A DNA stretch of 15,617 nucleotides. It comes from a virus. The stretch lies in the UHGV virus genome UHGV-2204636. One strand, given 5' to 3'. A program made the translations under genes and the position numbers. The notes under the pieces were generated by a model, which worked only from the letters and a program-made list of their open reading frames with translations, did not search any database and was not told where the DNA came from. Below, in pieces: positions 542 through 6,878 of this stretch (its first letter is position 1; every line of letters begins with the position of its first letter).

Positions 542-1579
542 TTAACGCTTATCCGCCACCAGTTTGAGCGCGTGTTCCAGCACATTAATGTCTGCACCCG
601 CTTTATGGGCATTTTCACTTAAATAACGCCGCCACTGCCGCGCGCCAGGAATACCCTGGAACAAGCCCAACATATGCCGGGTAATATGACCGAGATACGT
701 CCCCTGGCTGAGTTCACGCTCAATGTACGGATACATGGCGCGCACTACCGCCACCGGATCGGCATCGATATCCGAGGAACCAAAGATCTCCCGGTCTACC
801 GCCGCCAGAATACCCGGATTCTGATACGCCTCGCGCCCGACCATCACGCCATCCATATGTTGCAGGTGTGCTTTGGCCTCTTCCAGCGACTTGATACCAC
901 CGTTAATCGACATTGTCAGATGCGGAAAGTCACGCTTCAGTTGATACACACGCGGATAATCGAGCGGCGGGATCTCACGGTTTTCTTTCGGACTTAACCC
1001 CGAAAGCCAGGCTTTACGTGCATGGATGATGAACATCTCACACTCGCCTTTGCCGGAAACGGTGTTGATGAAATCGCAGAGAAATTCATAGCTGTCCTGG
1101 TCGTCGATGCCAATACGCGTTTTCACCGTCACCGGAATCGACACCACATCGCGCATCGCTTTCACGCAGTCGGCAACCAGCTGCGCATTACCCATCAGAC
1201 ACGCACCAAACATGCCGTTCTGCACCCGGTCAGACGGGCAGCCGACATTCAGGTTGATCTCATCATATCCACGCGCTTCTGCCAGCTTCGCACACTGTGC
1301 CAGCGCCGCCGGATCGCTACCGCCGAGTTGCAACGCTACCGGATGTTCTTCTTCACTGTACGCCAGGTAATCACCTTTACCGTGAATAATCGCCCCTGTG
1401 GTCACCATTTCGGTATACAGCAACGTATTGCGGGAAAGCAGACGCAAGAAATAGCGGCAATGTCTGTCCGTCCAGTCGAGCATAGGAGCAATGCTAAACC
1501 GAGAATTCCAGTAAACACCAGTTTTTTCAGGCATCACGCTGGTTTGATTAATTTTTTGTGTTTCATGATTATCGTGCAT
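542..1579 (-). CDS. dusA: tRNA-dihydrouridine synthase A; 5' end probably supplied by the integrated element; alternative start at 1534 (MPEKTG...)
   Basis: 345-aa ORF with the Dus TIM-barrel hallmarks ([31 protein letters not shown]); matches E. coli DusA as I recall it. No strong SD before either candidate start. Confidence 0.9.
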
Positions 1580-1611
1580 TTTTGAACATTTCAGGCTATT
1601 TTTCTCGCGTT

Positions 1612-1648
1612 AGGTTCCCGCACAGGTTCCCACGTTTTATGGGAACCC
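1612..1648. promoter_or_regulatory. Three GGTTCCC(A/G) motifs in the dusA-int divergent intergenic region: two direct copies plus an 8-bp inverted repeat GGTTCCCA-N7-TGGGAACC
   Basis: Motif at 1614-1620, 1626-1632 and inverted at 1641-1647, between the divergent dusA and integrase starts; candidate operator or recombinase/RDF binding sites. Confidence 0.3.
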
Positions 1649-1667
1649 GAAATAACGAGGTCGTGTA

Positions 1668-2765
1668 ATGGCGTACTATAACATAGAGAAACGACTAAAA
1701 TCCGATGGCACACCACGCTATCGCTGTAATGTGATTATCAAAGAAAAAGGTGTTATCACTTACAGGGAAAGCAAAACATTCCCTAAACATGCTCATGCCA
1801 AAACATGGGGCACACAGAAAGTGATGGAATTAGATCTATATGGCATTCCATCATCAAATGCAGTTGACGGACTTACAGTCCGTGACTTACTACACAAATA
1901 TTTAAATGACCCAAATGCCGGAGGTAAAGCAGGCCGTACTAAAAGATATGTGCTGGAACTGCTTATGGATAGTGACATCTCCGCGATCAAACTATCTGAA
2001 CTGACAGAAAATGACGTAATTGAACATTGCAGGCTAAGAAACAACGCTGGTGCAGGTCCTGCAACAGTCAGCCACGATGTTAGTTATCTTGGCAGTGTTC
2101 TGGATGCGGCCAAACCTGTATACGGAATTAATTACACATCAAACCCGGCGAAAAGCGCTCGCCCATATCTACTTAAACTTGGTTTGATTGGTAAATCAAA
2201 CCGTCGTAATCGTAGACCAGCATCTGATGAACTGGACATGCTCATTGCAGGCCTTCAACAACGATCTACTCATAAATGCTCAAAAATTCCGTTCGTTGAT
2301 ATCCTCAAATTTTCTGTATGGTCCTGTATGCGAATCGGAGAAGTATGCCGGTTACGATGGGAAGATCTCGACCAGGAACAAAAATCTATACTCGTAAGAG
2401 ACAGGAAAGATCCACGCAAAAAGGAAGGTAACCACATGAAAGTAGCCTTGCTTGGGGAAGCCTGGGATATCGTCCAACGACAGCCCCAAAAATCGGAATT
2501 CATTTTTCCATATAACAGCACTTCTGTTACTGCGGGATTTCAGAGAGTAAGAAGCAAATTAGGTATTAAGGATCTGCGATACCATGATTTGCGTAGAGAA
2601 GGGGCAAGTCGCTTATTTGAGGCTGGTTTTAGTATTGAGGAAGTCGCCCAAGTTACAGGGCATCGTTCATTAAACGTGCTATGGCAGGTATATACCGAAC
2701 TGTATCCGAAATCTTTACATAATCGTTTTGAAGAGCTCCAAAGGAGCAGAAATAAGACCTCTTGA
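1668..2765 (+). CDS. int: Tyrosine recombinase / phage integrase, in the position of a dusA-associated integrase
   Basis: 365-aa ORF with a GAGG SD; C-terminal catalytic signature (...RYHDLRREGASR... GHRSLNVLWQVY) typical of tyrosine integrases; divergent from and adjacent to the 5' end of dusA. Confidence 0.9.
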   Translation: MAYYNIEKRLKSDGTPRYRCNVIIKEKGVITYRESKTFPKHAHAKTWGTQKVMELDLYGIPSSNAVDGLTVRDLLHKYLNDPNAGGKAGRTKRYVLELLMDSDISAIKLSELTENDVIEHCRLRNNAGAGPATVSHDVSYLGSVLDAAKPVYGINYTSNPAKSARPYLLKLGLIGKSNRRNRRPASDELDMLIAGLQQRSTHKCSKIPFVDILKFSVWSCMRIGEVCRLRWEDLDQEQKSILVRDRKDPRKKEGNHMKVALLGEAWDIVQRQPQKSEFIFPYNSTSVTAGFQRVRSKLGIKDLRYHDLRREGASRLFEAGFSIEEVAQVTGHRSLNVLWQVYTELYPKSLHNRFEELQRSRNKTS

Positions 2766-3423: not shown

Positions 3424-4119
3424 ATGAAAAAGGAAATACTCAAGGCTCTTTGCCCTACATGCGGTGGGTTACGTAACTGCACTGTGCATGGGAAGCTAAC
3501 CACTAGCTGGGAGGATTCCCAATATCCAGTTTATGGGTACCATTACCATCACCTACTCCAATGCAATGGCTGTGATACTGTCTTCTATCACCACAACGAA
3601 CACTTCAGTGAGCATACTACCCACGAATATCGTGATGGTGAATTTGTAGAAACGCCTATAGATATGATCACTACCTATCCTGCCGCTGAAACATTTCAAG
3701 CTCCGATATGGTTATCCAAGCTTGAATCAGTTGATCGTCAGCTCTTTCAAATATTTAATGAAATGTATTCTTCATATACTTCTGACCATTTCATTCTTTC
3801 GTCCATCGGTTTACGGACGATTTTTGATCGAACTGCTGAACTGTTACAAATTCACCCCGGTTTGCCGCTTGGTGAAAAAGTTGAAAAATTAAAACAAGAT
3901 GGAGTCATAGGCGACACTGAGGCATGCGTTATATCTTCAGTAATTGATGCAGGAAACGCCGCCGCACATCGCAGTTGGAGCCCGAATAAAAGTGAGTTCG
4001 AACAAATGCTAGAAGCTATAGAAAGTTTTGTCCAAAGAACTATCTTGGGCAAAAAATCACTTGAACATATAACCAAACAACTCCCACCTCGGGTTACAAG
4101 ACCTAAAAATAGTGCATAA
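3424..4119 (+). CDS. Hypothetical protein: N-terminal 4-Cys zinc ribbon (CPTC...CNGC) plus C-terminal DUF4145/HEPN-like helical domain; candidate defence or abortive-infection cargo gene
   Basis: 231-aa ORF, visibly AT-richer than the flanking tail genes; CxxC-N32-CxxC plus a His-rich stretch at the N-terminus; C-terminal LGEKVEKLKQDGVI...IDAGNAAAHRS resembles the conserved core of DUF4145 as I recall it (unverified). Confidence 0.75.
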   Translation: MKKEILKALCPTCGGLRNCTVHGKLTTSWEDSQYPVYGYHYHHLLQCNGCDTVFYHHNEHFSEHTTHEYRDGEFVETPIDMITTYPAAETFQAPIWLSKLESVDRQLFQIFNEMYSSYTSDHFILSSIGLRTIFDRTAELLQIHPGLPLGEKVEKLKQDGVIGDTEACVISSVIDAGNAAAHRSWSPNKSEFEQMLEAIESFVQRTILGKKSLEHITKQLPPRVTRPKNSA

Positions 4120-4145: not shown

Positions 4146-4702
4146 CTATGGTTTACTTGCTACAGGGAATTTTTTATACACCGTTGAAATACCCAGATCA
4201 TAAATCAGTGCGACTTGCTGCTGATATATTCCCGATTCAATCAACCTGCCAGCCTGCCCCCATTGTTCTACTGTCAGCTTTGGCTTTCGCCCACCGTTCC
4301 TCCCTTCTTGTCGTGCTGCGGCAAAGCCGCCCTAGTACGTTCGACAATAAACTCTCGCTCCATTTCAGCCAGGGCACCCATCACATGAAAGAAAAAGCGC
4401 CCCATTGGTGTGCTGGTATCAATAGCATCCGTCAGGCTGCGAAAATTAACGCCACGTTCGCGCAACTCTTCCACCAGCACGACAAGATGCCGCATACTGC
4501 GCCCCAGTCGGTCCAGTTTCCAGACCACCAGCGTGTCACCTGCCGATAATGTCCTGAGCAGCTTTTTCAGTCCTGGTCTGTCGGACTTTGTACCGCTTAT
4601 CTTGTCTTCAAAAATCAGCTCACATCCTGCACAGTTCAACGCATTACGTTGTAGATCGGTGTTCTGGTCATTTGTTGATACGCGAACATAGCCAATAAGC
4701 AT
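4146..4702 (-). pseudogene. pin: Serine recombinase / DNA invertase of the Pin/Gin/Hin/Cin family, interrupted by a 1-nt frameshift near 4320-4323
   Basis: Frame A (4322-4702) encodes MLIGYVRVSTNDQNTDLQ...GRFFFHVMGALAEMEREFIVERTRAAL (catalytic domain, Ser in VRVSTNDQ). Frame C (4146-4322) encodes AAARQEGRNGGRKPKLTVEQWGQAGRLIESGIYQQQVALIYDLGISTVYKKFPVASKP (HTH domain), matching e14 Pin. Total length 557 nt is not a multiple of 3. Confidence 0.7.
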
Positions 4703-4731: not shown

Positions 4732-5103
4732 ATGCCATTTGCGCGCTATTTCTGCATTTTCATAAACGTTGGTTTGGGAGAAGCGGCAAAACGGAATGTG
4801 GGAACAGGGAAAAATCAGATACCTGATATGTCAGCTTATTCATCAGGATCTGGCTGGCAAAAATTGCCTGATGGTTCAATTGAACAGTGGGGAAGAATTA
4901 ATTTCCCGTATAACGCCGCGGCGGTATCTACAAATGTGACTTTCACCATTCCTTTTACGCAGGAGCCAGACGTAGTGATTGTATATGACGGCGGTTTTGG
5001 TGGTGGGAATATGTGGGGCGCAACTAACTGGACGAAAACAGGTTTCGTTGCTCATTGTAACTATGGCTTTGAAGGTGGAGCCTTCTACGCGAAAGGGCGT
5101 TAA
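4732..5103 (+). CDS. Silent alternative tail-fibre C-terminal cassette (Sv'-like); the ATG at 4732 is probably fortuitous, the cassette is expressed only after inversion
   Basis: ORF shares the VGLGE junction with the expressed fibre gene at the crossover site, then diverges (AAKRNVGTGKNQ...); no independent N-terminal fibre domain. Confidence 0.55.
   Translation: MPFARYFCIFINVGLGEAAKRNVGTGKNQIPDMSAYSSGSGWQKLPDGSIEQWGRINFPYNAAAVSTNVTFTIPFTQEPDVVIVYDGGFGGGNMWGATNWTKTGFVAHCNYGFEGGAFYAKGR
4757..4782. other. Invertase crossover site (gix/pix-like 26-bp imperfect palindrome), invertase-proximal copy
   Basis: TTTTCATAAACG-TT-GGTTTGGGAGAA; its reverse complement shares TTCTCCCAAACCAA with the site at 6573-6598; resembles hix/gix half-sites. 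Confidence 0.55.
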
Positions 5104-5105
5104 TT

Positions 5106-5546
5106 ATGAAATATTTGTATGTTGATAATCTGGCGTACCCTTATGCCCTCCAGTCTGTTTACGCTGCAAAAGGCCAATGGCCCGAAGGTAAAGGCGTGGA
5201 TATAGACGAAGCTATTTTCAGGGAATATTTCCATGATACGCCGCCTGACGGTAAGTACAGAATTACCGGAGACGATGGAATGCCAGCATGGGCAGATGTT
5301 CCACCGCCAACACGTGAAGAACAAATTGCATCAGCCGAAACTAAAAAGCAGCAATTGATTAATCAGGCCAACGATTATATGAACAGTAGACAATGGGCTG
5401 GTAAAGCGGCTATTGGTCGTCTGAAAGGTGAGGAACTGGCGCAATATAATTTGTGGCTGGATTATCTGGACGCACTGGAGCTGGTCGATACTTCCAGTGC
5501 ACCAGATATTGAATGGCCTACTCCTCCGGCAGTTCAGGCCAGATGA
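5106..5546 (+). CDS. Tail fibre assembly protein (Tfa / Mu U'-like), partner of the silent cassette
   Basis: 146-aa product with the conserved Tfa C-terminal motif (...NLWLDYLDALELVDTSSAPDIEWPTPP); immediately follows the cassette ORF. Confidence 0.85.
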   Translation: MKYLYVDNLAYPYALQSVYAAKGQWPEGKGVDIDEAIFREYFHDTPPDGKYRITGDDGMPAWADVPPPTREEQIASAETKKQQLINQANDYMNSRQWAGKAAIGRLKGEELAQYNLWLDYLDALELVDTSSAPDIEWPTPPAVQAR

Positions 5547-6120
5547 CATCCGGCGCGGTGCTGGTATCTGTTGCCGTCACCGCGTCAATGTAATCCAGCA
5601 CAGCGTTAAGTCGGGTTGTTTCTGCCTGCGTCAACTTCCGTCCGGCCTGTAATTTCAGCTGAATCAGACTAATGGAAGCCATTGCTGCATCAATCAGTGA
5701 CTGGCGCTGTGCTTCTGCTGCGTCTACTGCGGCACTATGCTGTGCCTCAGTATCCGTCACCCATTTCTCACCATCCCATTTATCGTATGGCGTTAACGGG
5801 GCGATAGTGGTTGTATTTTCGGGGTAATCACCCAGAGCTGTGATTTCTTTGGCGTCTCCCGTTTCGGTGTTATAGACGATTTCACCGCGATGGTCTGGCA
5901 CATATTCCCATGAGTTTAAATCTGCCGAACGGCAGATTGCATAACCAGCCTTATGTATACCAGGTTCATCCAGACAGGAATATGCCGGGATACCAACACC
6001 AACGGCAAGATATTCATTTGAAGTGGAAATATATTCCCGAGTTTCACCATCATAGCTATAGACGGTAATATCCCCCGCCTTCGTGGCAATAAGCTCGCTA
6101 TTTAATACAGCGTTATCCAT
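5518..6120 (-). CDS. Tail fibre assembly protein (Tfa / Mu U-like), partner of the expressed fibre
   Basis: 200-aa product with C-terminal ...LNAVLDYIDAVTATDTSTAPDVIWPELPEE motif; convergent with and overlapping the U'-like gene by 29 nt. Confidence 0.85.
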   Translation of the reverse strand: MDNAVLNSELIATKAGDITVYSYDGETREYISTSNEYLAVGVGIPAYSCLDEPGIHKAGYAICRSADLNSWEYVPDHRGEIVYNTETGDAKEITALGDYPENTTTIAPLTPYDKWDGEKWVTDTEAQHSAAVDAAEAQRQSLIDAAMASISLIQLKLQAGRKLTQAETTRLNAVLDYIDAVTATDTSTAPDVIWPELPEE

Positions 6121-6878
6121 TATTCAGCCCTCACGATAAAGTTAAATGCAATATTTCGCGCACGTGTTTCCGTTGATGTTCTGGCAACAAGTGATGCATC
6201 AAAATAATAATTCGCCTGTTTATATGTACCACCTATCGCAATTGGTGTGAGATTTGGTTGCACTATTGAAGAGGTAAATGCGCCGAAAGTATTATTATTT
6301 GTCCCCGTGGTCATATCAAAAAAGCTACCTGTAATATTTTGCAGCGTATCGCTCTGAGCACTCAATAACGCTCGCCCACTGTCCACTCCACGCCCATCAT
6401 CCCAGCCACGAATAAACTCACCCCGCAGATCTGGCAGCACAAGACCGGGGTAAACCAGTGCCAGCTTCGGATAATTTTTAGCTGCAAATGGAGCGCCGTT
6501 ACATTTCAGCCATCCTGTTGGTGGAGTGGCTAAAGGCCACGGAACAGGCACACCAACGGGTAATGCCGAACCTTCTCCCAAACCAAGATTTCCGAGAGCC
6601 GTTTTCACGGTGCCATCCGATTTGATATCGCCAAACGGATTTGAGCGACTCAGTAACAGCGCGTTTAGTGCTGTTAATAACTGGTTTTTTTTAGAAGGAT
6701 CAACATTAATACCGGCAGCGTTCAGGACAGTAATAAGCTCCGACTGCGCATCTCTGACAGCCCCCTGCACGTTATTCAGATGCTCAGCATCAACAATGGT
6801 CCCCAGCTCACCTGTGAGCGGATTACCATCATGGAAAAGATTATCCGGCGTCTGCACCGGTGGCATTAAGGGCCGCAT
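6120..6878 (-). CDS. Tail fibre protein (constant N-terminus about 6586-6878 plus currently expressed variable C-terminus 6120-6585)
   Basis: 252-aa ORF; start overlaps the stop of the upstream gene (TAATG); contains the crossover site at the GLGE codons. Confidence 0.85.
6573..6598. other. Invertase crossover site (26-bp imperfect palindrome) inside the tail fibre gene
   Basis: TTCTCCCAAACC-AA-GATTTCCGAGAG; inverted relative to the site at 4757-4782. Confidence 0.55.

Follow-up and report, generated by a model that had tools for sequence, protein, structure and literature searches.

Can a tail-fibre switch still be thrown when the invertase gene beside it is broken? The question is raised by the window analyzed here, a stretch of 15,617 nt from the virus genome UHGV-2204636. 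An earlier interpretation made from the DNA letters alone (the sequence-only reading) had proposed that a Pin/Gin-type invertase is inactivated by a single-base frameshift, and that the tail-fibre switch is probably locked, unless another invertase acts in trans or the frameshift is a sequencing error. The answer we prefer, with a probability of roughly 0.7, is that the locus is an orphaned tail-fibre switch of the e14/Mu type that can still be flipped in trans.

The prophage end adjoins dusA (542..1579, minus strand), with a tyrosine integrase gene at 1668..2765, and we take window positions 542-2765 to represent the known dusA-associated integration arrangement. A gene for a DUF4145 protein (3424-4119, plus strand) is found between a DinI-like gene and the invertase, and its product is identical (WP_001514810.1) in nearly all relatives, even in those with diverged neighbours. 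The DUF4145 and DinI-like proteins gave no PADLOC matches, and the DUF4145 gene may be a conserved accessory (moron) gene. The features of the switch are collected in Table 1.

Table 1. Coordinates and strands of the invertase pseudogene and of the tail-fibre switch, numbered from the first letter of the window.
Feature	Coordinates	Strand	Description	Basis
Pin/Gin-family serine DNA invertase pseudogene	4146..4702	-	557 nt, compared with 558 nt in intact orthologues	
Truncated ORF	4274..4702	-	142 aa; stop TGA 4276-4274	Translation, PF00239
Out-of-frame remainder	4146..4328	-	G-R-K-P-K arm and HTH_7 domain	PF02796, translation
Site of 1-nt deletion	4327..4328	-	GG here, GGG in intact orthologues	DNA alignment
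Invertase-proximal crossover site	4757..4782	-	TTCTCCCAAACC AA CGTTTATGAAAA	
Distal crossover site, inside tail-fibre gene	6573..6598	+	TTCTCCCAAACC AA GATTTCCGAGAG	
Invertible segment between central dinucleotides	4771..6584	.	1,814 bp	
Expressed tail fibre	6120..6878	-	252 aa; constant N-terminus outside segment plus cassette A (GEGSALP...)	
Tail-fibre assembly protein (Tfa), TfaE-like	5518..6120	-	200 aa; cognate to cassette A	Annotation of relatives
Silent fibre C-terminal cassette B (...AAKRN...)	4771..5103	+		In-silico inversion
Silent tail-fibre assembly protein	5106..5546	+	146 aa; cognate to cassette B	

On the minus strand, the invertase pseudogene runs from an ATG at 4702-4700 to a TAG at 4148-4146, and the identical allele carries the label 'recombinase family protein, frameshifted' in RefSeq. 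The frame 0 product begins with 125 native residues (MLIGYVRVST...ERTRA), which make up the catalytic domain and most of helix E, and then continues for 17 out-of-frame residues. The 142-aa ORF product is matched by PF00239 (Resolvase; E 5e-49, Pfam), the nucleophilic serine of the YVRVS motif is present, and MLIGYVRVST is the same as residues 1-10 of Gin (4M6F). The remainder of the gene is without a start codon of its own, and no separate ORF is listed in the HTH frame, which encodes GGFAAARQEGRNGGRKPKLT...KKFPVASKP up to the terminal TAG and is matched by PF02796 (HTH_7; E 2e-11, Pfam). Being offset by one base, the HTH_7 domain is not in the same polypeptide as the catalytic domain. The addition of one G yields a 185-aa protein, residues 1-181 of which align with residues 1-181 of Gin (3UJ3/4M6F; E 1.1e-90), and the reading-frame break falls between helix E and the DNA-binding arm. 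The earlier description of two intact domains lying one nucleotide out of register is borne out by the Pfam matches and by the alignment with Gin, the signal being much stronger than chance would give.

A comparison with intact orthologues, which the sequence-only reading had suggested as a check, was made with two 558-nt references, UTAK-14 (WP_086563458.1) and CP8-3 (WP_021563296.1). The DNA alignment shows that one G is missing from a GGG run, with AGGGCGGGCTTTGCC in the intact orthologues and AGGGCGGCTTTGCC in the window. The deletion lies at 4328-4327 and not at 4320-4323, where the break had been placed, a shift of 4-8 nt that leaves the conclusion unaffected, and the restored reading across the lesion is R-A-G-F-A-A-A-R, as in the intact orthologues, instead of the proposed L-AAA-R. 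Hin, Gin and resolvase need their C-terminal domain to bind crossover sites, and for this reason the truncated product, which is without the minor-groove arm and the HTH, is predicted to be inactive and unable to bind the crossover sites.

A change in the length of a G run is a typical error type, and the frameshift could be an error of sequencing or assembly in a short homopolymer, with the invertase really being intact. However, the run is only 3 nt long, and the same deletion is found in independent genomes from different laboratories. Over the invertase region (661 nt) the window is 100% identical to four complete E. coli chromosomes, and an identical deletion occurs in 19/19 of the RefSeq complete E. 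coli genomes fetched from the lineage with the 557-nt gene, in every one of which PGAP calls the gene 'frameshifted'. Contigs were scanned with an exact pattern across the junction that allowed either allele, and the frameshift form was present in 8 of the 12 IMG/VR contigs containing the junction and in 5 of 8 metagenome contigs (13/20 together), some of these carriers being Illumina SPAdes assemblies. The deletion is also linked to a diagnostic substitution, E149G, that is common to all frameshift alleles and is absent from intact alleles and from Gin. Sequencing error was rejected on this linkage and on the recurrence of the allele in 32 independent sequences (19 genomes and 13 contigs); it has virtually no chance of being correct, and the proviso made for it can be dropped. 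The gene with the single-base frameshift recognized earlier is a genuine pseudogene. RefSeq already flags it, and the dead allele is the majority form in the prophage family, at about 60% of the copies sampled.

Among the frameshift alleles, the 3' half is near-invariant and the 5' half is mosaic. The linked E149G together with the near-invariant 3' half suggest a single origin, and the pattern indicates that the allele probably arose once and then spread through recombination. Its carriers occupy several chromosomal sites, beside dusA or prfC among others, and some relatives that share the invertase allele are located near hsdR-like genes. Over its first 323 nt (window 4380-4702), the pseudogene shows 100% identity to an intact gene of strain UTAK-5 (H125) that bears the annotation pinE.

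A broken frame might still be read through. If a programmed -1 ribosomal frameshift or transcriptional slippage yielded some full-length invertase, a low level of function would be retained, and it would suit such recoding that the frameshift allele is the majority allele in the prophage family and that neither half is otherwise interrupted in any of the 32 copies examined. However, there is neither an X XXY YYZ slippery heptamer nor a long homopolymer at the lesion, and a TAG at 4334-4332 in the HTH frame, the target of the shift, confines any shift to the lesion spot and leaves two candidate codons, at neither of which would tRNA re-pairing be expected. Further lesions are found in the frameshift alleles only: the start codon changed from ATG to ATA, and the substitutions R68G, D12G and L118F, the last of which is carried by the allele in the window. 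Alteration of the start codon and of conserved catalytic positions (R68G, D12G) is unexpected under selection. The restriction of these extra lesions to frameshift alleles therefore points to a decaying pseudogene under relaxed constraint and argues against recoding. The sequence 3' of the lesion is near-invariant among frameshift alleles, with too little variation for a dN/dS-type test of constraint on the HTH part. Programmed frameshifting was rejected, given the absence of a slippery motif and the presence of damaging substitutions in the frameshift alleles, and a recoded, partly functional invertase is extremely improbable.

The cis-acting parts of the switch are a different matter from the enzyme. 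The crossover sites implied by the sequence-only reading at 4757 and 6598 are real: a 20-nt inverted repeat extends to two 26-bp sites (4757-4782 and 6573-6598) in inverted orientation, both with an AA core. The invertase-proximal site is identical to that of strain 20KM0223N, where inversion took place. The outer half of the distal site (6587-6598) reads CTCTCGGAAATC (reverse complement) as against CTCTCGAAAACC in more than 20 relatives, a difference of two substitutions, of which one falls 2 nt away from the core and the other changes a fibre residue from E into G. These two outer-half substitutions might weaken the distal site for any invertase. The two opposed fibre-plus-Tfa alternatives are both intact, and when the segment is inverted in silico, cassette B becomes joined in frame to the constant N-terminus, so that a 208-aa fibre is encoded with the 146-aa Tfa behind it.

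At least six fibre C-terminal cassettes are combined pairwise in one prophage backbone (window 4771-6584 and its equivalents in the relatives L001-L033), with the junctions GEGSALP, GEAAKRN, GEGANW, GEGAPAI, GEGSFG and one more, and these combinations indicate that cassettes have probably been swapped often, either at the crossover sites or close to them. A second short inverted repeat (5456-5473 / 5582-5599; 18 nt, 83%) coincides with the overlap of the convergent Tfa genes at their 3' ends, and it probably represents conserved Tfa C-termini and not a recombination site.

Whether the segment has inverted since the enzyme was lost can be examined in two strains from Switzerland, 20KM0223N (dog) and MEI148-20EC (soil), which both carry the frameshift allele and have chromosome lengths 30 bp apart. 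Around the prophage, 40,661 aligned bp are identical between them except for the exact reverse-complement of a 1,757-bp segment. A T/G SNP in one inner half-site is carried along by the segment, whereas the outer half-sites keep their positions, so that the exchange is confined to the 7-nt sequence TTGGTTT, which includes the central dinucleotide. Such an exchange is the footprint of a serine invertase, the homology being too short for RecA. Judged from these sequences, the inversion in the clonal pair came after the frameshift.

More widely too, carriers that have the A/B cassette pair in common occur in both orientations. The window expresses cassette A, and so do L028, L033, MEI148-20EC, 720632, LWY6 and TL20, whereas this cassette is silent in HH107, 47-1826, CFS3292, G5, 1332KP, 30345_1#279, PigCaeca_1, PEC301, ECZP248, S56 and 20KM0223N. 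Where a carrier has a single Pin/Gin-like locus (megablast level), the orientation is mostly the one that leaves cassette A silent; this fits rare flipping and is confounded by relatedness. It could be argued that the two orientations result from RecA homologous recombination or from horizontal replacement of the whole segment, with no invertase acting after the frameshift. The segments are indeed highly mosaic, at least six cassette types having been exchanged among relatives, and horizontal replacement could explain part of the population pattern, but not the clonal pair, the members of which differ by an exact inversion alone, with the exchange falling within a stretch too short for RecA. 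For that pair, homologous recombination was rejected as the cause of the inversion because the exchange is limited to 7 nt, and an origin of the orientations without any invertase is very unlikely. With an identical allele present in opposite orientations in a clonal pair, and both states common across carriers, the view that the switch is probably locked is not supported for this prophage family.

In three relatives the switch has been lost altogether, namely L008 (873.10), L015 (730V1) and L018 (DETEC-P61), either by deletion of crossover sites or by IS26 cutting the 5' end of the pseudogene, and 730V1 has a second, intact recombinase gene beside IS26. The expressed fibre is flagged by PGAP as 'incomplete, missing C-terminus' in several relatives (L007, L013, L014 and L016-L019), which may reflect either genuine breaks or artefacts of annotating the fused gene.

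Because both orientations occur despite a dead cognate enzyme, the exception allowed by the sequence-only reading, an invertase acting in trans, would be operative in this prophage family. The part of it that stands as observed is the occurrence of both orientations with the dead allele; the helper enzyme itself we infer. In this family the segment is most likely still being flipped by other invertases of the same cell, and the inversion in the clonal pair was presumably catalyzed in trans by the invertase of another resident element. In each of the 20KM0223N and MEI148-20EC chromosomes there is a second locus matching the invertase catalytic-domain DNA. Of 5,426 complete E. coli genomes, 2,843 contain pinQ/R-like genes (megablast level) and 1,900 contain Pin/Gin-like catalytic-domain DNA, so that a helper would be common, not universal.

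Small serine invertases of the Pin/Gin type use a Fis-dependent enhancer located in the 5' part of the invertase gene. A scan of the pseudogene for Fis-like 15-mers returned weak, non-diagnostic candidates alone. The possible enhancer region lies in the 661 nt that are identical to 20KM0223N and MEI148-20EC, whose segment inverted, and this 5' stretch of the pseudogene may still act as a Fis-dependent enhancer.

Loss of one G from the GGG run cuts the Pin/Gin-family invertase of this prophage short behind its catalytic domain, and in the model we propose the cis parts that are kept (two AA-core sites, two opposed cassettes and the 5' invertase DNA) would leave the segment a substrate. Flipping would then occur only with a compatible serine invertase supplied in trans from another prophage in the same cell, the candidate helper being a PinE-, PinQ- or PinR-type enzyme. 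The state captured in the window is the one in which cassette A, and with it the 252-aa fibre, is currently expressed.

The strain from which the window derives may differ from the family at large. None of the complete E. coli genomes spans the window collinearly, a 41-mer specific to it has no match in IMG/VR or among the GTDB species representatives, and the GTDB representatives also lack the junction pattern. If its cell holds no compatible invertase, or if the mutated distal site is unusable, the switch would be locked there and only the cassette-A fibre would be made. The cognate enzyme is without its DNA-binding domain, the distal site has its two outer-half substitutions, including the one 2 nt from the core, about half of complete E. 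coli genomes have no pinQ/R-like gene (megablast level), about 65% have no Pin/Gin-like catalytic-domain DNA, and the relatives 873.10, 730V1 and DETEC-P61 have lost the switch altogether. Against this, inversion happened in a lineage with an identical 661-nt invertase region, the silent cassette is fully intact, and the window is in the minority orientation compared with most A/B-cassette carriers, an observation suggestive of an inversion in its own lineage. A locked switch in this particular strain is thus possible but doubtful, and as the general reading we retain an orphaned switch still open to flipping in trans.

A broader proposal is that the prophage family has handed switching over to co-resident invertases (PinQ, PinR, PinE) and keeps the dead gene as a cis enhancer, the frameshift allele then being tolerated or even favoured and more than a product of decay. 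Though unlikely, this proposal would account for the pseudogene being the majority allele, for its spread over integration sites and cassette combinations, and for the integrity of both cassettes, and under it the rate of switching would be set by the prophage complement of the host or by phage-infection signals that induce pinQ. The practical point is that 'invertase pseudogene' does not equal 'locked switch'. Annotation pipelines and host-range predictions should count an invertible fibre segment as live whenever it has kept intact cis sites and the cell contains any compatible serine invertase. The high frequency of the dead allele poses a modest evolutionary question about the sharing of invertases between co-resident prophages, and the clonal pair with opposite orientations provides a clean natural control.

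The general importance of the finding is small; the situation is an ordinary one and is already documented. Earlier work has described an invertase without its HTH next to a segment still undergoing inversion; no report of the specific dusA-prophage allele was found in a literature search. What is added here is the demonstration in a clonal pair and the status of the dead allele as the majority form in a prophage family.

In its architecture, the repaired window protein shares PF00239 and PF02796 with Gin of Mu and with Pin (PinE) of e14, and the locus likewise resembles the G segment of Mu and the P segment of e14 in having the gene beside a segment of about 1.8 kb, with opposed fibre-plus-Tfa cassettes and 26-bp sites. 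The repeats of the e14 P segment, TTGGTTTGGGAGAAGG / CCTTCTCCCAAACCAA, are identical to the inner half-sites of the window. Unlike Gin and Pin, the window gene has a broken frame and the full-length enzyme is not encoded, and the element itself is neither e14 nor Mu, being an E. coli prophage of the myovirus type that lies beside dusA and carries Mu-like baseplate genes.

The closest precedent in behaviour is prophage Phi4 of EC958, in which the invertase is truncated and without PF02796, and both orientations of the segment were detected in PacBio reads (Forde et al. 2014, PMC4134206). The inversion of Phi4 was credited by those authors to an enzyme acting in trans, possibly the invertase of Phi1, and the 26-bp sites are near-identical (Forde et al., PMC4134206). 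The window-type prophage is similar in combining an HTH-less invertase with a segment found in both orientations, here among relatives. It differs in that the Phi4 gene is severely truncated, whereas the gene here is full length with a single-base frameshift; in that the two orientations of Phi4 were seen within the reads of one culture, and here in a clonal pair of assemblies; and in the core of the crossover sites, which is TC in Phi4 and AA, as in e14, in the window.

Exchange of invertases between elements has precedents as well. The e14 P segment is a substrate for three invertases, PinQ, PinR and PinE, which invert it at TTGGTTTGGGAGAAGG / CCTTCTCCCAAACCAA (Kirigo et al., PMC12529663), Pin complements Mu gin, and in Salmonella the Fin protein of Fels-2 acts on the Hin segment alongside Hin (both cited in PMC12529663). 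In the PinQ/PinR/PinE and Fin/Hin cases the cognate invertase is intact, whereas here it is dead, and the switch would depend wholly on outside enzymes.
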